Shown one piece after another: positions 4,620 to 52,130 of a stretch of DNA of 64,000 bases. Both the position numbers and the translations under genes were made by a program. Positions within the stretch are counted from its first letter, which is position 1. The number at the start of each line of letters is the position of its first letter. The notes under the pieces were generated by a model that saw only the letters and a program-made list of their open reading frames with translations, was not told the origin of the DNA and ran no database searches. Source of the DNA: Actinomycetota bacterium (GTDB taxonomy: Bacteria; Actinomycetota; Humimicrobiia; Humimicrobiales; Humimicrobiaceae); NCBI GenBank assembly GCA_028717265.1, contig JAQUOE010000005.1:4190-68189 (forward strand), written 5' to 3'.

Positions 4620-4628
4620 AAAGGTTTT

Positions 4629-6375: not shown

Positions 6376-6423
6376 CCGGTAGAAATTATTATTAAAATTT
6401 TAGACTGAGAAAAGGATTTATAA

Positions 6424-7677: not shown

Positions 7678-7690
7678 CAGGAAAAAATAA

Positions 7691-8467: not shown

Positions 8468-8468
8468 T

Positions 8469-9443: not shown

Positions 9444-9461
9444 AAAGCTTTTCACTGATGA

Positions 9462-11300: not shown

Positions 11301-11302
11301 AA

Positions 11303-12052: not shown

Positions 12053-12246
12053 GTGTATTATTATATGTTATAATCTGCCATTAATAAAATTGTACATTTT
12101 GGAAAAATATATGGCACATAATCAATGATTTAAATTAGACTGTAAATAATAAATAAGGGCCGGACAGCGAAAAAAACTTGTATTATAAATATAAATAAAT
12201 GTTAGAATAAAATTAATTAAATCCGACAAAGCAGGGTGGAAATCTG

Positions 12247-13473: not shown

Positions 13474-13528
13474 GAAAACGGGTGTATAACGAATATATAT
13501 CACATATATTTGAAGGAGGCATTTTAGT

Positions 13529-33639: not shown

Positions 33640-34305
33640 ATGTTTGCATTAATTTCTTACCCGATCGGGGAAAAAGAGACCGTTCCATATAAAATAGAGC
33701 CCAAACCAAAATTAATCCCTAAAGCACGAATTTCAAAAGGTGATATAAATAATACAAGTATGCTGGAAATGAGTGTTCATGGGGGTACTCATATTGACGT
33801 TCCTTTTCATACAGACCCAAACGGATTGACGATAGATAAAATGGATATCCAGGATTTTATATTTGAAAGTCCTCTGCTGATAGAATGCCGGAAAAGTGAT
33901 TTTGAAACAATAACCAGGGAAGATTTGATCCCATTTTGCAAAGATTTAGAAAAAGCCGATTTTTTAATGATATATTCAGGTTTTAGTGAGTACAGATTTA
34001 CTGATTCAGATAGGTTTATCAATAACTCATGCGGTATTTCAAAAGATGGAGCTGAATATCTCGTAAATAATTTTAATTTAAGAGGCGTGATGGTTGATTT
34101 TCTTGGAGTCGAGAATATAAATGAAGGTCTTGAAAAAGGTTTCAAGGCTCATGAGGTATTCTTAGCAAGGGGAAAGAAATTTATTGTTGTAGAAGATGGA
34201 AATTTTAAGCATATTTTAAATAAAGAAATAAAAAGAGTATTTATCATACCTTTGATGCTGGTAGGTGCAGAAGCGTCTCCGGTTACTGCATTTGTTGAAA
34301 TATAA
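33640..34305 (+). CDS. cyclase-family protein, paralogue 2
   Basis: HGGTHIDVPFH motif. Strong RBS ggagg. Confidence 0.75.
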   Translation: MFALISYPIGEKETVPYKIEPKPKLIPKARISKGDINNTSMLEMSVHGGTHIDVPFHTDPNGLTIDKMDIQDFIFESPLLIECRKSDFETITREDLIPFCKDLEKADFLMIYSGFSEYRFTDSDRFINNSCGISKDGAEYLVNNFNLRGVMVDFLGVENINEGLEKGFKAHEVFLARGKKFIVVEDGNFKHILNKEIKRVFIIPLMLVGAEASPVTAFVEI

Positions 34306-34394: not shown

Positions 34395-35891
34395 AAATGC
34401 TAAATTGTGATGTTTTAATAGTGGGCAGTGGTGTCGTAGGTTCCAGCGTTGCAAGAGAACTTTCTAAATATGAAATAGAAATAATATCAGTCGAGAAAAA
34501 TTCTGATGTCGGATTCAGCAATACAAGCAGAGGAAGTGCCGGTTGGATTCATTCAGGTATTGGTTCCGGAGTCGGATTTTTTGGTGACCTTGCCAACAAA
34601 TTGATAGTGCCTGGAAATAGGATGATGGATCGGTTATGTAAAGAATTAGAGGTACCTTTTGCGCGAAAGGCCGAGATCTTCGTAGCAAGAAGCGAAGAAG
34701 CAGAAAAAGTTTTTAAAGATTTCGAATCACAGGGTTTGAAAAACGGAGTAAAGGGCATAAAGATATTAAAGAAAGACGAACTTGTAGAAATAGAACCATA
34801 TATAACGGAAAAAGCCAGATCAGGTTTTTTCTCCCCGTCATCAGGAGTGGTCTCGCCCTGGGAACTAATATATGCTCAAGTCGAGAATTCTAAGGAAAAT
34901 GGAGCCGAAGTTCTTTCAGGCACCGAAGTAAGAAATATTACCAGAGATAACAATGGAAAGTTAATCGTAGAAACGACTGATGGCGAAATAAGCACAAAAT
35001 ATGTAATAAATTCAGCAGGTCTGTGGGCAGATACTGTTGCCAGCATGGTCGGCGATAACACTTTCGAAATAATTCCAAGAAAAAGCCAGGCACTGATCAC
35101 CGATAAGATATCAGGGAAATTAGTGAAGAATATATTTTTTGATGCCAGCCAGTGGATAAAACCATATACAGGAACTTGTATCGGACCCTCAACAGAAGGC
35201 AATATTTTCATTACCGGAAATGATGCGGAGGCAAATTCAAAAACCGATATTGCTGACAGCGCCGGTGCCATAAAGAATATGATAAAATACGCGAGAGACC
35301 TGTTTCCTTCAATAACATCTAAAGATATCATTAGATATTATACAGGTATTCGTGCCTTAAATACCCTGAAAAATGATTTTATCATTGAGCCATCAAAAGT
35401 ATTGCCCCAGCTAATAAATGTCCAGGCCGGGAGCGGGGGCATGACCTGTTGCATAGCTATAGCAAAATATGTGGCAGAGATATTAAAAAAAGAAGGCTTG
35501 AACCTGGTCAATAAATCCGATTTCAATCCAAATAGAAAAGCCATACCCAGACCAGTAGAGTCATCAGAAGAGGAAATTACGGAACTTATAAAGAAAGACC
35601 CAAGATATGGGCATATCGTTTGTCGCTGTGAGCATGTTAGCGAAGGAGAAATTGTAGAGGCTATAAAAAGGGGAGCCAGGACTGTGGACGGTATAAAATT
35701 CAGGACAAGAGCCGGGATGGGTCGCTGTCAGGGTGGCTTCTGCTCTTCCCGTATTCTTAAAATCATTTCGCGTGAATTAAATGTTCCGGTGACCAGCATC
35801 AATCAAAAAGAAAAGGATAGTGAACTTGTCTTATTTAAGACTAAAGATTTACTGACAATCGGAAAGAAAGATGGTCATGAATAGTAAAAGG
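34395..35891. repeat. ~1.5 kb perfect direct repeat, copy B
   Basis: Identical to 30477..31973. Confidence 0.9.
34397..35884 (+). CDS. FAD-dependent oxidoreductase with BFD-like domain (GlpA-like), copy 2
   Basis: Protein 100% identical to copy 1. Followed only by a vestigial 'MVMNSK...' start of the partner gene. Confidence 0.75.
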   Translation: MLNCDVLIVGSGVVGSSVARELSKYEIEIISVEKNSDVGFSNTSRGSAGWIHSGIGSGVGFFGDLANKLIVPGNRMMDRLCKELEVPFARKAEIFVARSEEAEKVFKDFESQGLKNGVKGIKILKKDELVEIEPYITEKARSGFFSPSSGVVSPWELIYAQVENSKENGAEVLSGTEVRNITRDNNGKLIVETTDGEISTKYVINSAGLWADTVASMVGDNTFEIIPRKSQALITDKISGKLVKNIFFDASQWIKPYTGTCIGPSTEGNIFITGNDAEANSKTDIADSAGAIKNMIKYARDLFPSITSKDIIRYYTGIRALNTLKNDFIIEPSKVLPQLINVQAGSGGMTCCIAIAKYVAEILKKEGLNLVNKSDFNPNRKAIPRPVESSEEEITELIKKDPRYGHIVCRCEHVSEGEIVEAIKRGARTVDGIKFRTRAGMGRCQGGFCSSRILKIISRELNVPVTSINQKEKDSELVLFKTKDLLTIGKKDGHE

Positions 35892-35996
35892 CGGAAATTT
35901 TTGTATTTTATTGTATAAGCGAGAAAGGACAAAAATTTTATTTCCAGACATATTTAAAACTAATTTGAAAAATAAATCATAGGGAAATATATTGAG

Positions 35997-36887
35997 ATGG
36001 TATTGATATCAGCTTTTCCAAAATGTTGGTTAGAAGACATTTCAGAAGGAAGGATGGATTTATTTGAGTGGATAGAAATCTCAAAAAATCTTGATTGCGA
36101 TGGTTTAGAAATTTATTATCGTTTTTTGAAATGTTTGAAATCGGATTATTTAAAAAGAGTCAGGAGGAAAGTCGAAGAACTCAATATGACTATCCCTATG
36201 ATATGTTATTCTTCTGATTTTACAAATCCGGAAAGAGGTATCAGAAAAAAAGAAATAAAAAAGCAGATAGATTTTATCAAGATTACCTCCGAACTTGGCG
36301 GCAGTTATTGCCGTATTCTTTCGGGTCAGGGGCGCCCGGGAGTGTCAGATGAACTGGCCACAAAATGGGTGATTGATTGCATTGAGTCATGTTTGGGAGC
36401 TGCCGAGGATAATGATATTTGCCTGGTTTTAGAAAATCACTATAAAGACAGTTATTGGAAGTTTAAGGAATTTGCCCAAAAAAAAGATATTTTCTTAGGA
36501 ATAGTCAATAGAATCGATTCACAATATTTTGGAGTTCAATATGATCCCTCTAATGCAATTGTAGCCGGTGAGGACCCGATAGATCTTTTGGATGAAGTAT
36601 TGGATAGAGTTAAAACAATGCACGCCAGTGATAGATATCTGAGACCAGGTTTTTCTTTGGATGACATTATTAAGGCAGATGGGGATCCCGGTTACTCCAA
36701 AGGTCTCGTGCATGGTGTTGTTGGTGAAGGACTGAATGATTATGACGCCATATTTAGCAGATTATCCGGTGTAAAATTTAACGGCTGGATTTCAATAGAA
36801 GATGGCATGAATGGTTTTCACGAAATGGAAAAATCAGTTAAGTTCTTAAAAAAAATGAGAGATAAATATTTTGCCGGTAATGTCTGA
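35997..36887 (+). CDS. xylose-isomerase-like TIM-barrel sugar (phosphate) isomerase/epimerase, family A paralogue 1
   Basis: AP_endonuc_2-like TIM barrel. ~60% identical paralogue of 62195..63085 (shared SAFPKCW...ISIEDGMNGF). Confidence 0.75.
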   Translation: MVLISAFPKCWLEDISEGRMDLFEWIEISKNLDCDGLEIYYRFLKCLKSDYLKRVRRKVEELNMTIPMICYSSDFTNPERGIRKKEIKKQIDFIKITSELGGSYCRILSGQGRPGVSDELATKWVIDCIESCLGAAEDNDICLVLENHYKDSYWKFKEFAQKKDIFLGIVNRIDSQYFGVQYDPSNAIVAGEDPIDLLDEVLDRVKTMHASDRYLRPGFSLDDIIKADGDPGYSKGLVHGVVGEGLNDYDAIFSRLSGVKFNGWISIEDGMNGFHEMEKSVKFLKKMRDKYFAGNV

Positions 36888-36998
36888 TAATCTATGGCCA
36901 TTATAACTGTTCCTGATTTCAGTTTATCCCGATACTTTCATTCATCACCAGCTTTGAACCATTTTTCCGGCATCTTTGAGCCAGTTATTTGCTCTATA

Positions 36999-37478
36999 TT
37001 AAGAATTAATAAGTTCGTAACTGTGGCTATATATTTCAAATACTATTCCAAAAGGGTCTTCCACAAAACACATTCTATAAGAATTTTTACCTTTATTAAA
37101 ATATCTTACAGGCATCCTTTGCTTACCACCGGATTCCACAATCTTCTTTATAAGTTCTTCAAGGTCAGGATCTTTTATGCAGAAGTGAAACAGGCCTGTT
37201 TTTGAGTAGCTAAAACTGTCGGTTGTCGGTTTATTATCGGAAAATTCGAATATCTCTATACCTATGCCATCACCGGTTGACATATGGGCAACTTTAAATT
37301 TGGACCATTTTTCCCCGAATACGTCTCTTGCCATTAAACAATCCTCTGAATCGGTATTTTCAATTGTTTCCGGCTCCTTTATGATGTACCAGCCCATAAC
37401 TTCATTATAAAATTTTAAAGCCTTGTCTAAATTCGGTACGGAAAGACCAATATGGGCGAGTGTTCTGGGATAAGTCAT
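36999..37478 (-). CDS. VOC-family (glyoxalase/bleomycin-resistance fold) protein, paralogue 1
   Basis: AHIGLSVPNLDKALKFY start and paired beta-alpha-beta-beta-beta modules. Confidence 0.7.
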   Translation of the reverse strand: MTYPRTLAHIGLSVPNLDKALKFYNEVMGWYIIKEPETIENTDSEDCLMARDVFGEKWSKFKVAHMSTGDGIGIEIFEFSDNKPTTDSFSYSKTGLFHFCIKDPDLEELIKKIVESGGKQRMPVRYFNKGKNSYRMCFVEDPFGIVFEIYSHSYELINS

Positions 37479-37611
37479 ATTGCAGCTCCTTTTCTTATAG
37501 AGGTTAATAATATATACGAACTTTTTACTTAAAGCTAATTAATAAGAATCAATTCTGATTAAAAAACTTTTTGTGCTTCTTTTTTATAATAGTATTGAAT
37601 TTTGTATAAAC

Positions 37612-38361
37612 TTATATTACTTCAACCCCAAGATCTGTTATTTTTTTATATAAATTCTCGGGAAGGTTTGAGTCAACGATTACCTTATCGAAAATAGAAA
37701 TACTGCCAATGCTGCTTATATTTATTTTACTGAATTTTGTACTATCTGCTATTAATACTTTATATTCTGCTTTCATAAGCAGCTTCATTTTTAAATTGGC
37801 TAATTCAAAACTTGTAATCATAACATTCATTTCTGAAGATATTGAATCGCATGCCATAAAGGCTATATTAGCATGTATTTCTTCAATAGTTTTTTCAGCT
37901 AACGGACCTATAAGACTATTTGTATCTAAATGCAATTTACCTCCCGTAAGTATTACAACCACGTTTTTTACATTAGATAATTGTCTTGCAATATAAATAG
38001 AAGGAGTTATTACTGTTAATTTTTTAACTTCTCTTATATTTCTGGCCAGCATAGATGATGTTGAGCCTGAATCAATTATTATAATTTGGTTGTCTTTTAT
38101 TAATTCGGCTGCTTTTCTGGCTATTTCCTCCTTTTTCTCCCTGTTAATATTCAATCTGCTTTCAAAGGAAGGTCTGGCATAGTCGAGTGATGTTGCACCA
38201 CCGTGCCATCTTTCAATCAGGCCTATCTTTTCCAAGTCCAATAGATCACGCCTGAGGGTAGAAGTGGGTATGTCTGTTTCTTTTTTCAAATTTTGGATTG
38301 TTATGAAACCTTTTTCAATTATAGTTGTTTTTAATTTGTCCAGCCTGTCTTTTTTCTTCAA
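37612..38361 (-). CDS. DeoR/GlpR-family transcriptional regulator
   Basis: N-terminal DeoR HTH (ITIQNLKKETDIPTSTLRRDLLDLE) and a C-terminal DeoR sugar-binding domain. Confidence 0.8.
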   Translation of the reverse strand: MKKKDRLDKLKTTIIEKGFITIQNLKKETDIPTSTLRRDLLDLEKIGLIERWHGGATSLDYARPSFESRLNINREKKEEIARKAAELIKDNQIIIIDSGSTSSMLARNIREVKKLTVITPSIYIARQLSNVKNVVVILTGGKLHLDTNSLIGPLAEKTIEEIHANIAFMACDSISSEMNVMITSFELANLKMKLLMKAEYKVLIADSTKFSKINISSIGSISIFDKVIVDSNLPENLYKKITDLGVEVI

Positions 38362-38635
38362 TTTTCAATAAATTTTGTAAAAATGATAAATTTTAAATAA
38401 TAAAATATTATACATGTGTTATTAATATTGACAAGTATTTTGACAATTATTATTATTTATGATATATATTATAACTAATTAGTTCATAAATGTGAATAAA
38501 TTAGTTAATAATTCTTGATTATCTGATTTTGTTTTTAAATAGGAGCTTCATGTCTGATTTAACATATGGTTTAAAATAATATTCCTTTATTATCTAAAGA
38601 AGATTAATAACATATTTAAAATAAAGAGGCAGAAA

Positions 38636-39517
38636 ATGAGTAAAGAAATTAAAGGGATTATCCCGCCATTATTAACCAGTTTTGATAAGAATGGCAATAT
38701 ATATAAAAAGGGACAGAGAGAAATAATAGAATTCATATTGCCATACATCGATGGCGTGTATCCGTGTGGAACATATGGCTCTGGCCCTCTCATGAGTTCT
38801 GATGAGCGCAAGACAGTTGCAGAGATAATTATTGAACAAATAAACGGAAGAGTTCCCGTCATTATACATGTTGGAGCTGCAAGCACGAGAGAAACGGTTG
38901 AACTGGCAAAACATGCCGCAAAAGCTGGCGCAGATGCAGTGGGTGCTATTGCCCCTTACTATTACAGTTATAATGAAAAGGAATTATTAAATCATTATAA
39001 AATATTAATCGACTCGGTGAATATACCTGTATTTTTGTATAATAATCCACATACTTCAGGTAATAGTATTTCTCCCGGGGTATTGAACGAGCTGGCAAAA
39101 TATAATCTTGCGGGGATAAAAGATAGTGCTTTTGACCTGGTTAATTTTTATTTATACCAGATTGAAGTAGATAATCCGAATTTCAAATTTATTATTGGAA
39201 CTGAAGCTATAGCAATGGCTTCTTTCATGTCCGGCGCAAAAGCAGCAATTTGTGGCGTTGCCAATGTGATACCGGAACCGCTTCATAAATTTTGGGAATT
39301 AGTTCAGAGAAAGGAATGGGAAGAAGCACAAAAATTTCAGATGGAAATACTTAAAATAAGAAAAGTTATGAAAATGGGATCAACACTCACAAATTGTTAT
39401 GCTATTTTAAAAATCAGGGGCATAGATAGCGGTTGGCCGCGGATGCCATATCTTCCGGTAGATGATATGCTGCAGAATAAAATAAAAGCTGAATTGTTAA
39501 AGCTTAATGTTATTTAA
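38636..39517 (+). CDS. DHDPS/NAL-family class I aldolase, paralogue 2
   Basis: IIPPLLTSF, GVYPCGTYGSG, and the Lys context GIKDSAFD. Confidence 0.8.
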   Translation: MSKEIKGIIPPLLTSFDKNGNIYKKGQREIIEFILPYIDGVYPCGTYGSGPLMSSDERKTVAEIIIEQINGRVPVIIHVGAASTRETVELAKHAAKAGADAVGAIAPYYYSYNEKELLNHYKILIDSVNIPVFLYNNPHTSGNSISPGVLNELAKYNLAGIKDSAFDLVNFYLYQIEVDNPNFKFIIGTEAIAMASFMSGAKAAICGVANVIPEPLHKFWELVQRKEWEEAQKFQMEILKIRKVMKMGSTLTNCYAILKIRGIDSGWPRMPYLPVDDMLQNKIKAELLKLNVI

Positions 39518-39545
39518 GCCGGATAAATGAAAAAATATTAAAAGT

Positions 39546-40538
39546 ATGGATTTTCTTATGGATAAAGTTTTAATTTGTTCGAGTTCTTTCGGAAAATTTA
39601 CGGATATAGGTTTAGGTTTATTGAAGAAAAATAATTATAAAATTATAATCAATGAGCTCGGAAGAGGTTTCAAAGAAGATGATTTTTTCCCTTATATCAA
39701 AGACATTGAAGGCATGATTGTGGGGAGTATGGATGAAGTCACTAAAAAGGTGATCGAGGCAGGTAAAAGATTAAAGGTTATATCTGTTCATGGCAAGGGA
39801 ACTGATAATATTGACATCGAATGTGCGACTGATCATGGTGTTTATGTTGCTAATGCAGGTAAATCAGAGAATAATAAAATAGCAGTTGCAGACTTAACAT
39901 TTGGTTTGATTTTATCGATTGCTCGAAATATTCCTACTGCCAATGAAATGGTAAAAAACTGTGTTTGGCAAAGAATAGTCGGGAAAAATGTGGGCAAAAA
40001 AGTTATTGGAATAATTGGTGCCGGTGAAATTGGGAAAGAAGTAATAAAGAGAGCAAAAGGATTTGAAATGGAGGTACTGGTAAATGATTTATTCGAGGAC
40101 CAATATCTGCTGAAGAACTATAAAGTAAAATACACGACTTTGGATTATTTATTAAAAAATTCAGATTTCATATCAATAAACGTAACACTGACAAGTGATA
40201 CTGAAAAATTAATTAGTGATAGAGAATTTAACTTAATGAAGCCCGGTGCTTTCCTGGTTAATACATCCAGGGGTAAAGTAATCGATGAGAAAGCTTTGTA
40301 CAATGCTTTAAAGGAGAATAAAATAGCAGGTGCGGCTATAGATGTTTATAACGCCGAGCCTATAAAAGCGACGGATCCTTTACTTAAACTTGATAATATA
40401 ATCACCACTCCGCACTATGGATTACACACTATTGAATCTCTTGAAGAAGTTGATTATATTTCAGCGAAAAATGTAGTTGATGCATTAAGAGGTGAAAAAC
40501 TGATAAATGCGCTAAATGATCCGATTAGTATTGATTAA
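39546..40538 (+). CDS. D-isomer-specific 2-hydroxyacid dehydrogenase (PGDH-like)
   Basis: GIIGAGEIGKEV NAD-binding loop and the catalytic region ...TPHYG. Confidence 0.8.
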   Translation: MDFLMDKVLICSSSFGKFTDIGLGLLKKNNYKIIINELGRGFKEDDFFPYIKDIEGMIVGSMDEVTKKVIEAGKRLKVISVHGKGTDNIDIECATDHGVYVANAGKSENNKIAVADLTFGLILSIARNIPTANEMVKNCVWQRIVGKNVGKKVIGIIGAGEIGKEVIKRAKGFEMEVLVNDLFEDQYLLKNYKVKYTTLDYLLKNSDFISINVTLTSDTEKLISDREFNLMKPGAFLVNTSRGKVIDEKALYNALKENKIAGAAIDVYNAEPIKATDPLLKLDNIITTPHYGLHTIESLEEVDYISAKNVVDALRGEKLINALNDPISID

Positions 40539-40573
40539 CATGGCAAACGATGAGTTTTTTCAAGGAGGAAAAA

Positions 40574-41248
40574 ATGATAGTCGAATTATCGTATTTAATT
40601 GGCGATTTGAATCCGGTTGAAATGTTAGGATTGTTAAAACCCGATATTAAATGGAGAGCAAGGTTTGGAGATGGTCAGGGCAAAAGCAATCAAACAAGTA
40701 ATATAGAAATGTCCAGTCATAATGGTACACACATAGATGCTCCATTTCATGTTTTAGAGAATGGAAAAAAAATAACGGATTTCGATATTTCCAATTTTTA
40801 TTTCGAAAAGGTTTTAGTTATTGATTGCGAAAAGAAAGACCTTGAAAAAATAGAGATAAATGACCTGAAACCTTATGAGAAGAATTTAAAAAATATTCAA
40901 TTATTGTTGATTTATACTGGTTTTAGCAAGTACAGATTTACGGAGACGGAAAGATATATAAAAAAATCACCGGGCTTTTCAATTGAAAGTGCTAAATTTA
41001 TTAAAAACAATTTTCCGAATATTAGATGTATCGGCGTTGATCTTATGGGTATTGAGAATATTATTGAAGGTAGGGAATCAGAATGGGTAATTCATAAAAT
41101 ATTATTTGAGGGTAATTCTAATTATTTTCATATTGAAGATATGAATGTTAAACCTGTTGCAGATAAAGAAGTTAAGAGAGTATTCATAGGACCAATCAGG
41201 TTTATTGGGTTGGAAGCTTCTCCCGTTACGATTATGGCAGAAATCTAG
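40574..41248 (+). CDS. cyclase-family protein, paralogue 3
   Basis: HNGTHIDAPFH motif. Start placed at the ATG six nt after the aaggagg RBS (the ORF track's upstream start is less likely). Confidence 0.75.
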   Translation: MIVELSYLIGDLNPVEMLGLLKPDIKWRARFGDGQGKSNQTSNIEMSSHNGTHIDAPFHVLENGKKITDFDISNFYFEKVLVIDCEKKDLEKIEINDLKPYEKNLKNIQLLLIYTGFSKYRFTETERYIKKSPGFSIESAKFIKNNFPNIRCIGVDLMGIENIIEGRESEWVIHKILFEGNSNYFHIEDMNVKPVADKEVKRVFIGPIRFIGLEASPVTIMAEI

Positions 41249-41289
41249 ACTGATAAATATTATTTGAGAAAGAATAGGATAAATAAGGC

Positions 41290-41691
41290 ATGAAGAAACT
41301 TTTTAAGACTGTTGAGCATATAGGGATTTATTCTTCTGATACAACCAGATTAGCAAATTGGTACATTGAGCTATTCGGATTAGAATTATTATTAAAGATC
41401 GAAAAAAGACCTGAGAGTAAATCAGTATATTTTTTAAAATCTAATGGAACGGTCATTGAAGTCTTGCCCGCAAAAAGTGATGCCGGCATGGAGAGGGAAA
41501 TCGGTGATACGGGCATAAACCATATCGGAGTCATAGTAGAAAATTTCGATGAGGCTGAAAAATATTTTGAAAAAAGAGGAGTCGTGTTAAGCGATATAAG
41601 AGAAACCAGCCTGGGCTGGAAGATCGGATACCTGAGAGACCTGGAAGATAATATAATTGAGGTTATCCATAAACCGGAAAATCATTTTTAA
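41290..41691 (+). CDS. VOC-family protein, paralogue 2
   Basis: VEHIGIYSSD...GINHIGVIVENFDEA. 133 aa. Confidence 0.7.
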   Translation: MKKLFKTVEHIGIYSSDTTRLANWYIELFGLELLLKIEKRPESKSVYFLKSNGTVIEVLPAKSDAGMEREIGDTGINHIGVIVENFDEAEKYFEKRGVVLSDIRETSLGWKIGYLRDLEDNIIEVIHKPENHF

Positions 41692-41788
41692 TAAAATACG
41701 AATGTAGAATTAGGAAAAAGATATCCGGAAAGAAATCTATACAAATTTTATTGAATTGAATAAGAATTATAATAAGGAAAATTTATAG

Positions 41789-42175
41789 ATGGATTTTAAA
41801 AGGATTATGCATGTAGGAATAATGGCCAAGAATACCGGTTCTTTATGTAATTGGTATATAAAGAAATTGGGCTTTAAAAAAGTATATCAGTTGCCGGCTA
41901 CCATGGAAAGATCTGAAGTGTATTGGTTGAAATTTGAAAACAACATGATTGAGATAGTACCCGCAAATAATAATATGAGACGCAATCGTTCAATAAAAGA
42001 TCCGGGTATCAGCCATTTCTCGATAACTGTCGAATGTTTTGACGAATATCTGGAAAAAATAATTAAAAAGGGAATAAAAGTAGAGGATATACATGAATTT
42101 AAAGAGTTCAAATGTGGTTTTTTTAATGATGGGGAAGGAAATCTTGTAGAAATTTTGTCCTTCACGAAATTATGA
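41789..42175 (+). CDS. VOC-family protein, paralogue 3
   Basis: IMHVGIMAKN...GISHFSITVECFDE. 128 aa. Confidence 0.7.
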   Translation: MDFKRIMHVGIMAKNTGSLCNWYIKKLGFKKVYQLPATMERSEVYWLKFENNMIEIVPANNNMRRNRSIKDPGISHFSITVECFDEYLEKIIKKGIKVEDIHEFKEFKCGFFNDGEGNLVEILSFTKL

Positions 42176-42954
42176 GGATTGTTAGGAGGTATATATTGGA
42201 TAAAATTGAATTGGCTATAGGAGTTCCTGATGTTTGTAAGAAAATTACAATTTTTACGAAAACAGGAGAATTAATAAGTAAAGTTGATAAAAAGAAAATC
42301 GATCAACTTGGGAAAAAAGCCAGAGAAATGGCAGCCTCGTATTCTGCACCAGGTTGTGCTACCGATGCTTTTCTGGGTATTACGGAAGCCCTGGAAATAA
42401 AAGGCCGGGAAGAAGTATTTAAAGCTACCTTAGGATTGTCCGGCGGATGCGGTCAAATGGTAAGGGGAACATGTGGTGCCATATTGGGTATGGCAATGGC
42501 AATATCTTTAAGTTTTGGTATCGATAAAAAAATAAACGATGAAATAAGAAAAGACAGTGAAACGATGGTCCCTTTTTATAAGAGAAGGATGCCAAAGTGG
42601 AGATATATAATGTTCAATAAAATTTTGTATGTGATTGACAGAGTTAAAGATAAATATGGCGGAACCACCTGTGCCGATATACAATTCGAACGACACGGCC
42701 AAACCTTTGATTCCAGAGATCCCAGAATAAGAGAGTTATGGCATGCTGATATCCAGAAATGCAGAGAAGTTGAAGGAGATATTGCGGAGTGGGGAGTTTT
42801 TTCACTGCTGCAGTCAACAAAATGGGATGAGGGTCTGAAGGAATGGGATCTGCCAAAAGAGATCCTTAAAAGGGGAGATCAATATTTTAAAGAAGAGGAA
42901 GGATTTGATTTACCGCCAAGATGGGAGGATAACTGGGATAGACATAAATATTGA
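42172..42954 (+). CDS. C_GCAxxG_C_C-family putative redox-active protein with long C-terminal extension
   Basis: PGCATDAFLG...GLSGGCGQMVRGTCGA matches the C_GCAxxG_C_C family cysteine pattern. ~110 extra C-terminal residues rich in W/D/E. Confidence 0.5.
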   Translation: MRIVRRYILDKIELAIGVPDVCKKITIFTKTGELISKVDKKKIDQLGKKAREMAASYSAPGCATDAFLGITEALEIKGREEVFKATLGLSGGCGQMVRGTCGAILGMAMAISLSFGIDKKINDEIRKDSETMVPFYKRRMPKWRYIMFNKILYVIDRVKDKYGGTTCADIQFERHGQTFDSRDPRIRELWHADIQKCREVEGDIAEWGVFSLLQSTKWDEGLKEWDLPKEILKRGDQYFKEEEGFDLPPRWEDNWDRHKY

Positions 42955-43150
42955 CGGCTTATTTTAAGAGTTACTATGTAAAAAATTTATTTACCGATTC
43001 TATAGTTAATATCTTTGTAATAACCTTAATTTGCATTGTTAAATGTTGCCAGTATGATTTGTTCAATAAAAAATAATATTCTATTCAGTATTGAAATTTT
43101 TAAATTATTAGATAGTTATTGTCTATAAACAATATCAGGGAGGAATGTAA

Positions 43151-43636
43151 ATGGAAAAAGAAATATGGCTGCAACACGTTGGTATAGGAGCAAAGGATGC
43201 GAATAAACTTGTTGATTGGTACTGTGATGTTTTAGGGCTTGAAAAGGTCTATGAAATTCCTGCTACAGAATATAGATCCGGCATGCCCTGCATAGGTATA
43301 GGGAAAAAAGATAAAATAGTAATTGAAATTTTCCAGAATGGAGAATTTAATCCATTGACGGGAAAACCATTAACCGAAGATGAAAAATCAAGAGTTTTTG
43401 ATAAAAATGGAGAAATTAAGGATATAAAACGTGATTTAATTGATCAGGGCATAAATCATATAGGTTTTAGAGTGGATGACTTTAAAAAATTCTCAAAGAA
43501 TTTGGAAAAAAAAGGAGTAAATTTTATAAAAGAAAGAAAAACATCCAAGGGCTGGACAATGGGTATGTTATCAGATCCGGAAGGTAATCTGATTGAAATA
43601 TTTTGGGCCGATGAGCTGCTTCCATATGAAAAATAA
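43151..43636 (+). CDS. VOC-family protein, paralogue 4
   Basis: LQHVGIGAKD...GINHIGFRVDDF. 161 aa. Confidence 0.65.
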   Translation: MEKEIWLQHVGIGAKDANKLVDWYCDVLGLEKVYEIPATEYRSGMPCIGIGKKDKIVIEIFQNGEFNPLTGKPLTEDEKSRVFDKNGEIKDIKRDLIDQGINHIGFRVDDFKKFSKNLEKKGVNFIKERKTSKGWTMGMLSDPEGNLIEIFWADELLPYEK

Positions 43637-43691
43637 TTTTTTAATTCGGCATTGTTTATTATATGTAAAAAATTCTATATAAAAAGGAACA

Positions 43692-44456
43692 TTGAGAATG
43701 AATGAAGAATTTTCCAATAAAGTATGTATTGTAACCGGGGGAGCAACAAATATCGGGAAAGTTACAGCTCTGTCGTTTGCCAGAGGAGGCGCTAAAGTAG
43801 CAATTATCGATATCAAAGAGAAGGAAGGTAAAGAGACCTTAAAGGAAATCGAGCAGTATTCGGAAGGTTTATTCATTAAAACCGATATAGCTCTGTGCGA
43901 TAATGTAAAGAAATCGGTGAAAGAAGTATATGATAAATTCGGACATATTGATATCCTGGTCAATAACGCTGTTATTTGTTTGCATTGTTACGGCAAGGAT
44001 GTTTCAGAGGAAGTATGGAATAAAATGACGGATGTCAATCTTAAGGCCTTATTCTTTTTTTCACAGGAAGTATCGAAAATAATGAAAATCCAGAAGAGCG
44101 GAAGAATTATTAATACGGCATCTTCAACCGGGGTAGCTGCGAGAAAAGATTATTTAGTATATACCGGTCAGAAAGCAGGAGTGATCGGTCTTACTAAAGC
44201 ACTGGCATTAGAATTAGCAGAATATAATATTCTGGTCAATTCAGTTTCACCTGGTTATGTTTTAACAAAGGCAAAAGAGAAATTGGTTAAAGATAGGAAA
44301 TTTATGAATTGGCTAAAAACAAGAATACCAATTGGAAGATTTATATCTATGCAGGAAATTGCTAATGTGTATTTATTTTTAGCATCCGATAGATCTTCCG
44401 CCATAACTGGCCAGAATATTATTGTTGATGGAGGCTGGCTTATTAATCAAGGATAA
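43692..44456 (+). CDS. SDR-family oxidoreductase (tandem copy 1)
   Basis: VTGGATNIGK, NNAV, Y..K motifs. Full-length classical SDR. Confidence 0.85.
   Translation: MRMNEEFSNKVCIVTGGATNIGKVTALSFARGGAKVAIIDIKEKEGKETLKEIEQYSEGLFIKTDIALCDNVKKSVKEVYDKFGHIDILVNNAVICLHCYGKDVSEEVWNKMTDVNLKALFFFSQEVSKIMKIQKSGRIINTASSTGVAARKDYLVYTGQKAGVIGLTKALALELAEYNILVNSVSPGYVLTKAKEKLVKDRKFMNWLKTRIPIGRFISMQEIANVYLFLASDRSSAITGQNIIVDGGWLINQG
43705..43972. repeat. 268-nt identical segment shared by the 5' halves of the two tandem SDR genes (copy A)
   Basis: Identical to 44502..44769. A second ~50-nt identical patch lies at ~44043..44092 vs ~44840..44889. Confidence 0.85.
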
Positions 44457-44491
44457 ATGATAGTTTAATTTAATTATAAGGATGAAGAAAT

Positions 44492-45241
44492 ATGGATCAA
44501 AAAGAATTTTCCAATAAAGTATGTATTGTAACCGGGGGAGCAACAAATATCGGGAAAGTTACAGCTCTGTCGTTTGCCAGAGGAGGCGCTAAAGTAGCAA
44601 TTATCGATATCAAAGAGAAGGAAGGTAAAGAGACCTTAAAGGAAATCGAGCAGTATTCGGAAGGTTTATTCATTAAAACCGATATAGCTCTGTGCGATAA
44701 TGTAAAGAAATCGGTGAAAGAAGTATATGATAAATTCGGACATATTGATATCCTGGTCAATAACGCTGTATTAATAATTCCCAAATCCGTTCTGGATATT
44801 TCGGAAGAAGAATTTGATAGAATGCATAATATAATTTGCAAAGCATCATTCTTTTTTTCACAGGAAGTATCGAAAATAATGAAAATCCAGAAGAGTGGGA
44901 AAATCGTTAATATAGCAACCAGTCCTGGAGAAAACAAAAAGCATACCTACCATATTCCAAAAGCCGGGGTTATAAGAATGACCCAGGCATTTGCAGTTAA
45001 ACTTGCAGAATTTAACATAAATGTTAATTCGGTTTCACCAAATTTCACTCTCACTGACAGGCATATACCGGGGGTTTGTCCTGAAAAAACTTTGGAATTT
45101 TATAAAGAAAGAGCACCCATGGGCAGATTTGTTACAATGGAAGATGTTGCAAATGCAGTTTTATTTTTTGCATCAGAAAAGTCTTCAATCATAAATGGGC
45201 AGGATCTGGTTTTAGATGGTGGCTGGTCCATACACGCTTAA
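44492..45241 (+). CDS. SDR-family oxidoreductase (tandem copy 2, divergent substrate-binding half)
   Basis: First ~94 residues identical to copy 1, then divergent. Confidence 0.8.
   Translation: MDQKEFSNKVCIVTGGATNIGKVTALSFARGGAKVAIIDIKEKEGKETLKEIEQYSEGLFIKTDIALCDNVKKSVKEVYDKFGHIDILVNNAVLIIPKSVLDISEEEFDRMHNIICKASFFFSQEVSKIMKIQKSGKIVNIATSPGENKKHTYHIPKAGVIRMTQAFAVKLAEFNINVNSVSPNFTLTDRHIPGVCPEKTLEFYKERAPMGRFVTMEDVANAVLFFASEKSSIINGQDLVLDGGWSIHA
44502..44769. repeat. 268-nt identical segment (copy B)
   Basis: See copy A. Confidence 0.85.
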
Positions 45242-45268
45242 ATTACAAAGTAATTATTGTTTTACAAT

Positions 45269-46831
45269 ATGAGTAAAAAATATATTATCACTTATGATAT
45301 AGGTACTACAGGTGCTAAGGCATGTTTATTCGATCAAAACTTAAATGTTATCGCATCTGATTTCGTTTCTTATAGAACTTATTATCCTAAAGAAAATTTA
45401 TCGAATCAAAAACCAACTGAATGGTGGAATGCTGTTTGTAAAAGTACAAAGAGATTAATTGATGTTTCTAAAATAGATAACAAAGAAATAGTTGTTATCG
45501 GAGTTGCCGGGCAGTACCCTGTTATAGTACCAATCGATAGAAACAATGAATTGCTAACTGACGATGTCCCCGTATTTTCCGATATAAGGGCTATCAAGCA
45601 GGCTGAAAGATTAGTCAACGGAATTGGAAGTTCTGATGGTTTATATAAAATAATTGGAAGTGGCAGACAGGCTATGTTAAGTGTATGTAAGGCTATGTGG
45701 ATTAAAGATAATTATCCTGGTACATTTAAAAAAGTACATAAATTCGTAGCGACGAAAGATTATATAAATATGAAATTAACCGATGTTCTTAGTACCGATT
45801 ATAGCGATTTTTGTGCCAGTGGTTTTATGGATATAAGTAAAAGGCAATTTTCAGATGAAATTTTAGATGTATCAGGTATCAAAATTGATAAAATTCCGGA
45901 AATACGTAAGTCACATCATATTATTGGGGGTGTTAGCAAAAAAGCTGCAGGAAGCACCGGTCTGAAAGAGGGCACCCCGGTTATAGCGGGAGCTGCAGAT
46001 GCGCTGTGCGCCTGTATAGGTTCAGGAGTAATTGAAAAAGGGGAAGCATGCATGAGCATTGGCTCTGTAAACTGGACCAGTATAGTAGCGGGTGAGCCTT
46101 TTTTAAATACAAATTATAAGGTTTCCAGTCAATTACCTTTTCCATGGGAAAATGCTTATAATCCCTTGATTGATACTTATGCAGGTGGTTTAAGTCAGGA
46201 ATGGTTTAAAAACAAAATTTATAAGACTGAAGAATTGATATTTAAAGAATTGAATTTGAATATTTATGATTTCATGAATAAAAAAGTCGAGGAAATTAAT
46301 CCCGGATCGGATGGATTATTATTTTTGCCTTATTTAAAAGCTGAAGGTCCGCCTTATTATAATCCGAATATGAGAGCATCTTTTATAGGATTAAGTATGT
46401 ATCATAATAGGGAACATATGCTCAGATCAGTATTTGAAGGAACTTGTTTAAACATGAAACTTCTTTTAGAGATATTTAATAAAAATGGTGTAACAGTAAA
46501 TGACTTTAAAGAAATCAAGGTTGTAAGTGGTGGGGTAACTTCCAGAAATTGGATGCAGTGTTACTCGGATATTCTAAATATGCAATTAGCAGTAGTCAAG
46601 GATCCCAGGCAGGCAACGACAAAAGGTATAGCGATTGTAGCAGGTGTAGGGGCTGGAATTTGGAAAAGCTTTAAAGATGCCACTGCCCTGACTGGAATTA
46701 GTGAAATTTATGAACCTCAAATAAAATTTCAGGAAAAATATAGAAAATTATTTGAAGTTTATAAAAAATGTAGTTTAAAAATGGTAGAGATTTGCAATGA
46801 TCTGGCAGATTTTAGGGAAGATAAAAAATAA
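45269..46831 (+). CDS. FGGY-family carbohydrate kinase (xylulokinase/glycerol-kinase-like)
   Basis: YIITYDIGTTGAKACLFD N-terminal ASKHA motif. The ORF-track start at 45257 is a TTG; ATG at 45269 preferred. Confidence 0.8.
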   Translation: MSKKYIITYDIGTTGAKACLFDQNLNVIASDFVSYRTYYPKENLSNQKPTEWWNAVCKSTKRLIDVSKIDNKEIVVIGVAGQYPVIVPIDRNNELLTDDVPVFSDIRAIKQAERLVNGIGSSDGLYKIIGSGRQAMLSVCKAMWIKDNYPGTFKKVHKFVATKDYINMKLTDVLSTDYSDFCASGFMDISKRQFSDEILDVSGIKIDKIPEIRKSHHIIGGVSKKAAGSTGLKEGTPVIAGAADALCACIGSGVIEKGEACMSIGSVNWTSIVAGEPFLNTNYKVSSQLPFPWENAYNPLIDTYAGGLSQEWFKNKIYKTEELIFKELNLNIYDFMNKKVEEINPGSDGLLFLPYLKAEGPPYYNPNMRASFIGLSMYHNREHMLRSVFEGTCLNMKLLLEIFNKNGVTVNDFKEIKVVSGGVTSRNWMQCYSDILNMQLAVVKDPRQATTKGIAIVAGVGAGIWKSFKDATALTGISEIYEPQIKFQEKYRKLFEVYKKCSLKMVEICNDLADFREDKK

Positions 46832-46899
46832 GCATAAAATTTCTTAAAATCCGAATATTTTTATAAAGATAATTTTACCCTGAATACGGAGTTGATTTA

Positions 46900-47748
46900 T
46901 TGGATCTAATTTGTTATTCATGTTTGTTAAGACAGTTAATAGATTTATTATCATGTGCAAAAGTAAGTTCTGAAAAAAGTCACGAAGTCTTTTTTAAAGT
47001 ATATGATTACATAAAAAACAGGCCGTTAGATGAATTATGTCTACAGATTGGGAATGAGATATATTTAATTCTAAAAGAAGAAACGGGAATCGGGGACCCA
47101 TGCAGGGAAATTAAAGATATTAGCAATAAGTTATCATTAGAGATTTATCCCTGGTTAAAAAAAATTGTACAAAATTCGAAGAATAAGCTCGAAACGGCAT
47201 TAAAAATTGCGATAGCAGGTAATGTCATAGATGTTGGGGCGGGCATAGATCTGGACTTAAGGAAAGCAGTTGAACAAACCATAATCCAGGATATAGATGA
47301 AAGATATTATCGCGATTTTGTTAGCCTTATTTCGAATGCAAATAATATAATATTTCTGGCAGATAATGTAGGAGAGGTTGTTTTTGATAGAGTTTTTTTA
47401 GAAGAAATAAAAAAAGTTAATAAAAATAAAATTTATTATGTAGTAAAAGATAAACCATATCTTAATGATGCTCTCAGAAATGATGCAATCTGTGCCAGAA
47501 TAGATAAGATCGCAGAAGTCATTTCAAATAGCTCCGACTATGCAGGGACACAATTAGATAAATGTCATAGCAGTTTCTTGAAAGAATTCAATAAAGCCGA
47601 TTTGATTATTTCTAAGGGTTATGCGAATTATATGAGCTTAAAGAATATTGAAAAGCCTATTTTTTTTCTTTTTAAAATAAAGTGTCCGTTAATGCAGGAT
47701 GAATTTAATGTAAAAAAAGGCTCTATAATATTTAAAAATAATCTGTAA
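46900..47748 (+). CDS. DUF89 / ARMT1-like metal-dependent sugar-phosphate phosphatase (candidate)
   Basis: FLADNVGEVVFD matches the DUF89 DNxGxExxxD metal-site motif. Upstream IAGNVIDVGAG. Confidence 0.5.
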   Translation: MDLICYSCLLRQLIDLLSCAKVSSEKSHEVFFKVYDYIKNRPLDELCLQIGNEIYLILKEETGIGDPCREIKDISNKLSLEIYPWLKKIVQNSKNKLETALKIAIAGNVIDVGAGIDLDLRKAVEQTIIQDIDERYYRDFVSLISNANNIIFLADNVGEVVFDRVFLEEIKKVNKNKIYYVVKDKPYLNDALRNDAICARIDKIAEVISNSSDYAGTQLDKCHSSFLKEFNKADLIISKGYANYMSLKNIEKPIFFLFKIKCPLMQDEFNVKKGSIIFKNNL

Positions 47749-48267
47749 GTAACTCTGGTAACGATACTTCTTATAGAATAACTTTTTGATAAACTCTATT
47801 AAACCGGTCAGTATAAAAAAGGAATCCATAGTCTCTGAAAGCTTATTTTTAAAAGCAAAGAAAAGTCTGCTGCCAATAGATGTGACCACAACAGAAGAGA
47901 AAAAAATAATGTATATTTTATTTGGAAAACTCTTTTGCCATAGAGTGGAAAAGGTCTAAACAATGACTTTTAAATTATTGAAATTGAAAATAAAAAAGAG
48001 AAAATTAATAAAGAAATTGATATACTGGCGAAAATGTAGATAAAATTGCCACCGATGGGCTAATGGCAGAGGCAGTTCACCCGGCTTCTACCTTAAAAAC
48101 CCCAGGGATTTAGTACAGGATTTAATCAATGCTGAGGATAATCTAGCTAGTTCAGGTGTTACATTCAGGAAGAAAATTAAAGTTATTTAAGTATAAAAGC
48201 TCGGTATAATTTAAACCACTGGCTAATAATTATAACAAGTTAAAATCTTATTAGTTCTAATTATAAT

Positions 48268-49233
48268 TTATATAGGCATAGCAATATTACTAAAATCCTT
48301 CAATTTTTTAATAGCCAATATTATTGCTCCTTCTACCGGGCTTCTCACAAGTGGTTTAAAATTAATATGTGGAAACTTTTCCTTTAATTTATTTACTACG
48401 ATATTTTTAAAATACCTTTTACAATTGAATAAGCCACCAACAAAAACAAGATCAAACTCCTTATTTTTAAAGCCAAGCTTATTAGCAACAGCAGTAACAG
48501 AAATTACGGCTTCCTCCGCTTCACCGGTTAATATATCAATACTTATCCTGTCTTTTATTTGTGCAGTCGTACATACTATTTTAGCCAGTGAGCTAATTCT
48601 TTGTTTTGAAAATGTTTCTTTATATACCCAATTGGGTATATCCAATACTTCTTTTAAGTTCAAATTTTCCAATATTATTTTAGACAGCAAAGTTTCTTCA
48701 CCGCGCCCGTCATAGGCTCTCATAACTGCTCTTAAAGCTTTAAGACCTACATTGTAGCCGCTGCCTTCATCTGCAAGAATATAATCCCAGCCAGTCGATA
48801 CTACATTTTCCCCTTCTTCATTAATTCCAAAACAGTTGGAACCAGCCCCAGCAATAATTATTATCTTATTTTTACTTTCACTTCCTGCCTCAAGACCAAT
48901 TCTTGTATCATTACAGATAATAGTTCTTTTTGGATAAAGAAAACTTCTTAATCTGCTGTTAAATGCAATTTTCTTATAAATTTTAGAGTCCTTTTCTGTG
49001 TTGTTACCTGCAAAACCGAAACAAGAACTTATAAAATGAACTTTTCCATATACTTCTAAATTTTTAACGGCATCAAAAATAGCTGTATTAAGATTTTTTA
49101 TCGCATTATTTATTCCAACACTTTTACAATTACTTGAACTTGAAATGGCTTCGCTAACGACTTTTCCATTAGTTTCTGCAATTTGTACAGTGGTTTTTGA
49201 GCCACCTCCATCAACTGCTAAGATATACTTCAT
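48268..49233 (-). CDS. BadF/BadG/BcrA/BcrD-type ATPase (GlcNAc-kinase-like ASKHA)
   Basis: ILAVDGGGSKTT N-terminal phosphate-1 motif. 321 aa. Confidence 0.7.
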   Translation of the reverse strand: MKYILAVDGGGSKTTVQIAETNGKVVSEAISSSSNCKSVGINNAIKNLNTAIFDAVKNLEVYGKVHFISSCFGFAGNNTEKDSKIYKKIAFNSRLRSFLYPKRTIICNDTRIGLEAGSESKNKIIIIAGAGSNCFGINEEGENVVSTGWDYILADEGSGYNVGLKALRAVMRAYDGRGEETLLSKIILENLNLKEVLDIPNWVYKETFSKQRISSLAKIVCTTAQIKDRISIDILTGEAEEAVISVTAVANKLGFKNKEFDLVFVGGLFNCKRYFKNIVVNKLKEKFPHINFKPLVRSPVEGAIILAIKKLKDFSNIAMPI

Positions 49234-50650: not shown

Positions 50651-50689
50651 ATTAATTCCAACTTTTAGTATTAATCTTGATCTATTTTT

Positions 50690-51664: not shown

Positions 51665-52130
51665 TTTAACTCTTCCTTTTTTAATGTTTTTTATTTATTA
51701 TGGCGTTTTTATTGCTAGTAGTGTAAAACTGGTTCATACTGTCAAATGAGTCTATTTTTTCTCCTGGTTTTTTATACTCTCAATAAACTTTTTAATATCA
51801 AATAAAAAAATGCCGTTTTCACAGAATTGTTTTTTAATATATTAAATTACTTCCCAATAATATAAATTTAAAATATAACAACTTAAAGAAAGGTTATATT
51901 AATTAATCTTTTTATAATTAAGATATTATTTACAAATAATAGCAAAATGTTTTTCACAAGTAAATATAAAATGTCAAAATAATATGTAAATGGTTATATA
52001 ATTTTCTGTAAATTTATTAATTTATAAGTAGGGAAACACTTAAGTTTTAATGAAAATAATAAAAAGGAAATAAAGGAAAGAGTAGATGATAAGATAAAAA
52101 AGAATACGTCACCTTGGTCAACAGTTATAT

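Follow-up and report, generated by a model that had tools for sequence, protein, structure and literature searches.

A seven-family operon with a cyclase-fold hydrolase and an adjoining VOC protein is conserved across phyla and may serve the catabolism of a sugar-derived lactone or keto-acid

What would a bacterium do with four small VOC-fold proteins encoded among about 12 consecutive genes, side by side with an aldolase, a dehydrogenase, and a metal hydrolase? The question is posed by a 64-kb stretch of contig JAQUOE010000005.1, deposited under the label Actinomycetota (this whole stretch is called the window here, and all positions refer to it). An initial annotation had grouped the genes between 36999 and 45241 as one cluster of four VOC genes with genes for a C_GCAxxG_C_C protein (CGCA), a cyclase-fold protein, a DHDPS-type aldolase, a D-isomer-specific 2-hydroxyacid dehydrogenase (2-HADH), and a DeoR-family regulator, and had taken the four VOC proteins as one joint feature pointing to an unusual substrate. 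Genes were called from the listing of open reading frames (ORFs), families were assigned by Pfam with gathering cut-offs, and subfamilies were assigned by NCBIfam cut-offs. All of the named genes were indeed present, with Pfam matches above the gathering cut-offs; the cluster proteins were identical to MDD5621891-99, and the same gene arrangement was independently assembled in JGI, ENA, and Logan contigs. The answer that we favor, at about even confidence, is that positions 38636-47748 form an operon under DeoR control that serves the breakdown of a lactone or keto-acid derived from a sugar. Its core of seven families is conserved as an operon across phyla, and VOC2 is the only one of the four VOC proteins that belongs to it.

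A core operon conserved across phyla

The core consists of plus-strand genes for a DHDPS/NAL-family class I pyruvate aldolase (38636-39517; PF00701, 191.6 bits), the 2-HADH (ORF 39546-40538; gene-caller start 39558, 326 aa), a cyclase-fold (PF04199) metal hydrolase (ORF 40550-41248; gene-caller start 40574, 224 aa), VOC2 (41290-41691), a tandem pair of SDR proteins (43692-44456 and 44492-45241), and an FGGY-family sugar kinase (45257-46831; closest to xylulokinase and gluconokinase, below both cut-offs). The cluster had been taken to end at 45241; the operon runs on through the FGGY kinase and an ARMT1/DUF89 damage-control phosphatase (46900-47748, plus strand), its last gene.

When GTDB was scanned with the aligned module cyclases, the closest cyclases (37 to 42% identity) turned up in three Anaerolineae/Anaerolineales metagenome-assembled genomes (MAGs) and one Spirochaetaceae MAG. 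Synteny was examined by hand, from ORFs and Pfam matches, in the seven best cyclase loci. The Anaerolineales MAG (locus L019) and the Spirochaetaceae MAG (L021) share the order cyclase-VOC-AFOR-DHDPS-FGGY-SDR-SDR-2HADH (AFOR, aldehyde:ferredoxin oxidoreductase), with a GntR/UTRA regulator upstream in L019 and a complete CUT2 ABC transporter upstream in L021, so that the same seven families, including the tandem SDRs and the kinase, are found there and in the window. Two Anaerolineae MAGs (L020 and L022) carry cyclase-VOC-AFOR-DHDPS-2HADH-DHDPS, with FGGY, GntR/UTRA, and binding-protein genes upstream on the opposite strand and a linked CUT2 ABC transporter. In locus L008, a CUT2 sugar ABC transporter precedes genes for DeoR, DHDPS, 2-HADH, cyclase, VOC, and CGCA, and loci L005-L007 have cyclase, VOC, and 2-HADH genes beside a galactitol/ascorbate-family phosphotransferase system (PTS), together with genes for CGCA, ferredoxin, AFOR, and a pyridine-nucleotide oxidoreductase. 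The operon was also found in unassigned metagenome contigs, where sugar ABC or PTS transporters are linked to it and AFOR often is.

Between the window and L019, identities over the full length were 39% for DHDPS (with a shared G(T/S)YGSGPLM motif), 36% for 2-HADH, 31% for the FGGY kinase, and 28 to 34% for the SDRs; those for the cyclase and the VOC protein were about 41%. The VOC gene starts 0 to 41 nt past the cyclase stop in seven loci, and the VOC2 orthologues of the related loci directly follow a cyclase wherever the locus has one. Next to more distant cyclases (≤36% identity; Flavobacteriales, Cloacimonadota, and Leptospira) no VOC gene was found, and tblastn with the cyclase against a plasmid collection gave no match. 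All component families are known; the searchable literature contained no description of the operon, of the cyclase-VOC pairing, or of the CGCA subfamily treated below.

One core VOC protein and three others, all with an intact metal site

VOC1 (36999-37478, minus strand; 159 aa; PF00903, 57.5 bits), VOC2, VOC3 (41789-42175, plus strand), and VOC4 (43151-43636, plus strand) scored 40.8 to 62.7 bits against a Pfam cut-off of 20.6 (PF00903/PF13669). In an alignment of the four with seven orthologues and Escherichia coli GloA (ligands H5/E56/H74/E122), the H-E-H-E ligand columns were invariant, corresponding to H9/E75/H98/E148 in VOC1, H10/E57/H78/E124 in VOC2, H8/E55/H76/E121 in VOC3, and H9/E59/H103/E149 in VOC4; pairwise PDB alignments were consistent with these assignments. 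The initial annotation had considered that all four might be degenerate paralogues without the His/Glu quartet. The quartet is kept in every one, and, judged by these residues, the four look like catalytically intact, metal-type enzymes of uncharacterized subfamilies.

An AlphaFold2 model of VOC2 (pLDDT 81) shows the VOC fold. Its top Foldseek matches were 3r4q, 3l7t, 2p25, and 1f9z (TM-score, 0.66 to 0.71), with 2p25 and 3l7t leading by both sequence and fold, whereas structures of methylmalonyl-CoA epimerase (MMCE) matched the model at a TM-score of 0.41 to 0.43 only. Subclassification by profiles confirmed the VOC superfamily for all four and carried none of them over the cut-off of a glyoxalase I, MMCE, or dioxygenase model: scores were 17 to 42 bits for glyoxalase I (TIGR00068/NF050074; cut-offs, 120 to 165), 33.6 to 41.8 bits for the SMU1112c/YaeR glyoxalase-I-like family (NF050075; cut-off, 140), and 20.9 to 32.1 bits for MMCE (TIGR03081; cut-off, 114.95), and extradiol dioxygenase models gave partial matches of 16 to 21 bits only, the VOC proteins being single-domain and H-E-H-E. 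VOC1 reached 233.1 bits with TIGR03645 ("glyox_marine"; cut-off, 262.05), the match spanning positions 1-157 of the 162 in the model. Its homologues at 57 to 67% identity number more than 1,500 and are named "lactoylglutathione lyase family protein" in the sources; they come from Bacillota, Spirochaetota, Verrucomicrobiota, Planctomycetota, and other phyla, where their gene contexts vary.

That the four VOC genes form one joint feature did not hold up. VOC1, encoded 133 nt downstream of the DeoR gene on the same strand, gave no BLASTP match to VOC2, VOC3, or VOC4 and is of an unrelated family. The other three are paralogues at 29 to 36% identity (VOC3 to VOC2, 34 to 35%; VOC4 to VOC2, 32 to 36%). 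VOC2 is nearer to the single VOC protein of related loci (L008, 55%; L002, 45%; L005, 43%; L019-L022, 39 to 43%) than to its own paralogues VOC3 and VOC4, and by these sequence comparisons it is the orthologue of the VOC protein of the conserved module, a glyoxalase-I-type small VOC protein, with VOC3 and VOC4 being old paralogues of it. VOC3 is the diverged one, lacking the TSxGW motif of the subfamily and keeping its ligands, and VOC4 has an insertion of ~28 aa between its two modules. If VOCs make up ~0.5% of genes, as we assumed for a rough estimate, four VOC genes among ~12 consecutive genes exceed chance by far, with a P of ~1e-3 per genome; since three of the four are mutual paralogues, paralogy explains most of this density.

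As a separate observation, the closest relative of VOC1 (67%) is encoded at the head of a CUT2 ABC operon in an Actinobacteria MAG (GCA_030602575.1; loci L099-L101), and on the opposite strand there a gene for a 119-aa VOC-like protein adjoins genes for a 2-HADH and a PfkB kinase, so that the pairing of VOC and 2-HADH recurs in another form.

Subfamily evidence for the other core enzymes

The metal motif of the cyclase (HxGTHxDxPxH) is intact, reads SSHNGTHIDAPFH, and is invariant in four module cyclases. The cyclase is 73% identical to the copy in L008 and 41 to 46% identical to those in L005, L019, and L020, and it scored 48.6 bits with the kynurenine formamidase equivalog TIGR03035 against a cut-off of 223. 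For family PF04199, hydrolysis of amides, esters, and lactones is documented, including a metal-dependent esterase and a dienelactone hydrolase (PMC5341072). The best PDB match was the kynurenine formamidase KynB (4cz1; E 4e-11), and the motif is shared with KynB, isatin hydrolase, esterase MGS0169, and trans-dienelactone hydrolase. The window cyclase differs from these hydrolases in that tryptophan-pathway genes do not lie near it and that its subfamily is defined by a VOC protein encoded directly downstream. Among the Pfam matches of the cluster there was no metallo-beta-lactamase-fold (glyoxalase II) gene, the cyclase-fold protein being the only hydrolase.

In the DHDPS aldolase, the likely Schiff-base lysine lies in a GIKDS motif conserved with L019, and a GTYGSGPLM motif is present. 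Its nearest PDB entries were YagE (2-keto-3-deoxy-sugar-acid aldolase) and NanA (E ~1e-36), and it remained below the cut-offs of all specific equivalogs (NanA, DapA, and 2-keto-3-deoxygluconate [KDG] aldolase). The closest PDB entries for the 2-HADH were phosphoglycerate dehydrogenase (PGDH), glyoxylate reductase, and 2-ketogluconate reductase. NCBIfam subclassification of the SDRs, the FGGY kinase, and AFOR gave generic results only, apart from one SDR each in the window and L019 operons that reached the cut-off of a sugar-1-dehydrogenase-like subfamily; in the window this is SDR1 ("glucose 1-dehydrogenase"). The initial annotation had described the SDR pair as a mosaic, and rightly: a 268-bp block is 100% identical in the two genes (43705-43972 and 44502-44769), with proteins that are 66% identical overall, a pattern of sequence identity that suggests recent gene conversion.

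The ARMT1/DUF89 phosphatase gene lies right after that for the FGGY kinase and is without counterpart in the L019 operon; its product may serve in proofreading, by dephosphorylating a sugar phosphate that is reactive or wrongly phosphorylated.

A divergent control region with a tandem repeat

The gene for the DeoR-family regulator (37612-38361, minus strand; HTH_DeoR and DeoRC sensor domains) is divergent from the operon and has an orthologue in L008 whose product is 57% identical. The three best sigma-70-like sites of the region 35800-48400, which match at 11 of 12 positions, fall between the DeoR and DHDPS genes in an intergenic stretch of 274 bp (38362-38635), back to back at 38428-38456 (plus strand) and at 38496-38468 and 38434-38407 (minus strand). 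A tandem 12-mer (TTGACAAgTATT/TTGACAAtTATT, 38428-38451), of which the plus-strand −35 box is part, occurs nowhere else in the window (2 matches versus 0.18 expected by chance). We regard this tandem repeat (12-mer TTGACAAnTATT) as a candidate DeoR operator, and the DeoR control that had been proposed for the cluster appears plausible from this arrangement. Regulators of the DeoR and GntR/UTRA families typically sense sugar phosphates, which fits with an inducer made by the FGGY kinase or, in L002 and L005, by the PTS.

CGCA and the VOC3-CGCA-VOC4 insert

CGCA (42172-42954, plus strand; 260 aa) scored 48.2 bits with PF09719 against a cut-off of 27 and 28.3 bits with TIGR01909, below the cut-off of 47.4. 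The unusual Trp/acid-rich C-terminal extension noted earlier is real and conserved across the subfamily: in 10 homologues, all metagenomic, W207, W218, D219, E224, and W225 of a Trp-rich tail of ~45 aa are invariant, as are five cysteines (C62, C93, C101, C167, and C197), including that of TCGAILG. The cysteine-motif core aligns with the 160- to 200-aa members of the family (PF09719/TIGR01909; DVU_1555-type), which end at approximately profile position 205; in contrast to them, CGCA has this tail and an N-terminal extension of ~30 aa. An exhaustive HMM search of 1.84 billion representatives returned 172 family members, of which only 1 (a 50%-identity cluster) matched end to end; the CGCA subfamily is very rare. 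The AlphaFold2 model was moderate (pLDDT 71) and of low quality near C93 and C167. Neither Foldseek (E ≤ 0.001) nor a sequence profile search returned a PDB entry, so that no function could be drawn from the fold. The literature assigns the C_GCAxxG_C_C family no function, and genomic position is the only clue to CGCA.

By that clue, CGCA is accessory rather than core, because none of the 80 cyclase loci, those with the Anaerolineae and Spirochaetaceae operons among them, contained its specific DNA signature. A GTDB genome scan with the CGCA alignment gave 90 pattern matches and no relatives, and a metagenome scan gave 6 loci and no new context type. In the window, CGCA and two VOC genes occupy the slot after the core VOC gene that is held by AFOR in Anaerolineae and Spirochaetaceae; in L005, CGCA adjoins ferredoxin, AFOR, and oxidoreductase genes. 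The stop of VOC3 overlaps the start of CGCA by 4 nt. The VOC3-CGCA-VOC4 trio is intact in L014 (CGCA 85% identical), and in the L008/L103 lineage (82 to 84% identical) an ABC-ATPase fragment replaces VOC3 and VOC4 is missing, amid gene fragments and a transposase remnant that point to local rearrangement. The trio is a lineage-specific accessory insert.

A further context of CGCA was seen in L002, L003, and L017, with L017 repeating the architecture of L002. There, CGCA lies amid genes like E. coli yhf/php (PTE, PALP, SelA-like, RidA, aminotransferase, class II aldolase, and saccharopine dehydrogenase) and is followed by genes for a 187-aa protein without a Pfam domain, a YHS-domain protein, and PTS components; further on come a VOC2-type VOC gene and two DeoC-like aldolase genes, without a cyclase.

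A proposed route and its precedents

From the gene content, the intact ligands, the relations of paralogy and orthology, and the conserved synteny we infer the following route and type of substrate. An ABC transporter would bring in the sugar for phosphorylation by the FGGY kinase, or else a galactitol/ascorbate-family PTS would do both at once; that the PTS replaces the ABC transporter and FGGY in L005 and L002 suggests early phosphorylation. An SDR would oxidize the imported sugar, and the cyclase-fold enzyme would hydrolyze the resulting lactone or ester. The H-E-H-E metal of VOC2 would then chelate neighboring carbonyl and hydroxyl oxygens and allow a proton shift via an enediolate, that is, a keto/hydroxy or aldose/ketose isomerization, after which the 2-HADH and the second SDR would adjust the oxidation state and the DHDPS aldolase would release pyruvate and an aldehyde. 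In the other phyla, AFOR, where present, would oxidize that aldehyde. The cluster is not a textbook sugar pathway, in agreement with the initial annotation.

Two known types of pathway offer partial precedents. The archaeal branched (non- and semiphosphorylative) Entner-Doudoroff (ED) pathway consists of a sugar dehydrogenase, a lactonase, a dehydratase, a DHDPS-type KDG or phospho-KDG aldolase, and AFOR. The operon shares with it a DHDPS-type aldolase (158 bits with Arch_KDGaldase, a cut-off of 390 being unmet), one SDR like sugar 1-dehydrogenases, and, in the Anaerolineae, Spirochaetaceae, and L005 versions, an adjacent AFOR; the GTYGSGP motif of the window also resembles the GTTGLGP motif of the Sulfolobus KDG aldolase. 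It differs from the archaeal pathway in that it has no dehydratase, its candidate lactonase is cyclase-fold and not SMP30 or amidohydrolase, and it adds a VOC protein, a D-2-HADH, a second SDR, and an FGGY kinase. With the L-ascorbate (ula and yia-sgb) and ketogluconate/idonate systems of E. coli it has in common a DeoR-type regulator (UlaR is of the DeoR family), a galactitol/ascorbate-family PTS beside the module in L002 and L005, a logic of lactone hydrolysis followed by keto-acid rearrangement, a 2-HADH that resembles 2-ketoaldonate reductases (9m0t; E 1e-50), and SDRs and an FGGY kinase that resemble gluconate 5-dehydrogenase and gluconokinase, respectively. UlaG, UlaD, UlaE, UlaF, and YiaK are all missing, however, and matches stay below equivalog cut-offs, so that the likeness is one of logic only. 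An ascorbate-, diketogulonate-, or ketoaldonate-like route is one concrete possibility that this analogy would allow.

Several results weigh against a sugar-lactone or keto-acid operon. No version of it (window, L008, L005, and L019-L022) encodes a recognized sugar-acid dehydratase (IlvD/EDD, enolase superfamily, or UxaA), the IlvD/EDD gene of the window lying in a separate cluster at 26601-28268; because no dehydratase is encoded, a simple dehydrogenase-lactonase-dehydratase-aldolase route is incomplete. This leaves two options: a substrate that is a 2-keto-3-deoxy or keto acid from the start, or new chemistry by the cyclase-VOC pair. Each operon enzyme falls below the cut-off of every specific NCBIfam equivalog, and the linked solute-binding proteins have distant ribose-type matches in the PDB only, which gives no substrate call. 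The gene order of the window differs from that in the other phyla, the window operon is without a directly attached transporter, and the proposed route has no part for the VOC3-CGCA-VOC4 insert. The literature, finally, contains no characterized member of the operon and no paper on it.

Other explanations of the cluster

If the cyclase-VOC pair carries out chemistry new to either fold, which we consider unlikely, it could supply a lactonase plus the missing dehydration or rearrangement, or it could be a glutathione-independent glyoxalase system which the D-2-HADH joins and in which the five-cysteine CGCA would be a protein thiol or redox partner. A glyoxalase-like salvage of aldehydes is an attractive but doubtful explanation of the operon. 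VOC2 would act as glyoxalase I on the thiol adduct of a 2-oxoaldehyde (methylglyoxal or hydroxypyruvaldehyde) arising downstream of the aldolase, the cyclase would be a glyoxalase II analogue freeing a D-2-hydroxyacid that the 2-HADH turns into a 2-oxoacid, and CGCA could supply the thiol. The conserved trio of VOC, metal hydrolase, and D-2-HADH maps one to one on glyoxalase I, glyoxalase II, and D-lactate dehydrogenase, and the fold and ligands of VOC2 are of the glyoxalase I type: GloA (1f9z) and SMU.1112c/YaeR (3l7t and 2p25) share with it a length of ~130 aa, paired beta-alpha-beta-beta-beta modules, and identical H-E-H-E columns, are its best fold matches, and let one expect a metal-assisted proton shift via an enediolate. 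The PF04199 family contains esterases (PMC5341072), a VOC2-type VOC gene lies within ~4 kb of CGCA in all three independent CGCA contexts, and AFOR, which also handles aldehydes, is often nearby. Against this stand the glyoxalase I scores far below their cut-offs, the position of the VOC gene in a sugar operon, right behind that for a cyclase-fold hydrolase, which sets it apart from GloA and YaeR, the lack of CGCA in the cyclase loci searched for it, a hydrolase family for which thioesterase activity is not known, and a 2-HADH whose nearest relatives do not include D-lactate dehydrogenase. Operons with sugar transporters and sugar-type regulators, moreover, fit main-line catabolism better than detoxification.

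The substrates that had been suggested at the outset fare unequally here. A 2-oxoaldehyde or alpha-dicarbonyl is compatible with the glyoxalase-I-like fold, whereas a CoA-linked intermediate and an aromatic aglycone are unlikely. For MMCE-like epimerases acting on an acyl-CoA or acid intermediate, a very improbable reading, one could cite the weak TIGR03081 matches and the MMCE structures in the Foldseek list; the former are far under the 115-bit cut-off, the latter match at a TM-score of ~0.42 versus 0.66 to 0.71 for VOCs of the glyoxalase I type, and no operon version encodes a CoA ligase, CoA transferase, or thiolase. That the VOC proteins cleave or modify an aromatic aglycone in the manner of extradiol dioxygenases is hardly credible, despite marginal N-terminal matches to catechol and biphenyl dioxygenase models, a single-domain L-DOPA dioxygenase among the fold matches, and nearby GFO/IDH/MocA and xylose-isomerase-like genes (49502-51664). 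Extradiol dioxygenases use a 2-His-1-carboxylate ligand set and usually have two VOC domains, whereas the ligand set of the VOC proteins is H-E-H-E; the latter are single units of 128 to 161 aa, and other aromatic-pathway genes are not present in the cluster. Related operons, furthermore, encode ferredoxins and a tungsten/molybdenum-type AFOR, an enzyme typical of strict anaerobes, and O2-dependent ring cleavage is unlikely if these are taken as a sign of anaerobic hosts. It is improbable, too, that the VOC density is incidental, the genes being leftover duplicates or coding for noncatalytic binding proteins without a joint function. VOC1 indeed has no fixed genomic context, and the L008/L103 lineage is without VOC3 and VOC4, amid gene fragments and a transposase remnant that suggest local rearrangement; yet every metal ligand is kept in all four proteins, the slot of VOC2 after the cyclase is conserved across phyla, the insert is intact in the L014 relative, and VOC3 and CGCA overlap.

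Should the favored explanation of a sugar-lactone or keto-acid operon be right, it could account for an aldolase-based sugar-acid route without a recognizable dehydratase in some anaerobes, and a VOC-fold dehydratase or keto-acid isomerase, if the cyclase-VOC pair supplies the missing step, would be new. Versions of the operon exist in uncultured bacteria that carry the labels Actinomycetota, Anaerolineae, and Spirochaetaceae, as well as in unassigned metagenome contigs. The identity of the substrate would give functions to a clade of cyclase-fold hydrolases, to a VOC clade, and possibly to a first C_GCAxxG_C_C protein, for which the annotations in many genomes go no further than "cyclase family protein," "VOC family protein," and "putative redox-active protein." For annotation, the lesson is to use comparative synteny to tell core from accessory members of a VOC cluster before reading it functionally.

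Other features of the window

The wider window is a carbohydrate island that also encodes an IlvD/EDD dehydratase, a second DHDPS protein, a DGOK kinase, GlpA-like dehydrogenases, two more cyclases, a LarA-like racemase, and several ABC systems. Rfam gave no match anywhere in it. An AFOR gene hidden in its left part was considered and rejected, positions 1-14000 being devoted to fatty-acid synthesis, PknB, PP2C, and malic enzyme. GC content ranges from 29 to 43% (29 to 39% in the sugar island and 40 to 43% in the housekeeping genes at 4000-14000), which is unusually low for Actinomycetota, the depositor's label, and points either to an anaerobic lineage that branches deeply or to a label that is in doubt.

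The three PF04199 paralogues in the 64 kb (16811-17479, 33640-34305, and 40550-41248) all lie in carbohydrate clusters, and the first adjoins genes for a LarA-like nickel-pincer 2-hydroxyacid racemase (17517-18764), an SDR, and an IclR-regulated ABC system. A gene for a GlpA-like FAD dehydrogenase (DAO and BFD domains) is duplicated exactly over 1,494 bp (30478-31971 and 34396-35889), the two copies bracketing genes for Pyr_redox_2, DUF1667, and a cyclase; the duplication could be either real or a mis-join in the MAG. Judged by contig ends, short-read assemblies of this same genome appear to end near the second GlpA-like copy and the SDR repeat, an example being the 7,875-bp contig L001.

Farther to the right, a 128-aa ORF at 53705-54091, upstream of a CUT1 ABC transporter, encodes an FCD (GntR C-terminal) domain only, without HTH; the regulator may be truncated, or its start may have been called wrongly. 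Separate from the operon, minus-strand genes at 49502-53174 encode a GFO/IDH/MocA oxidoreductase, a xylose-isomerase-like TIM barrel, and a LacI regulator, a set reminiscent, by analogy, of the processing of 3-keto-glycosides or C-glycosides.

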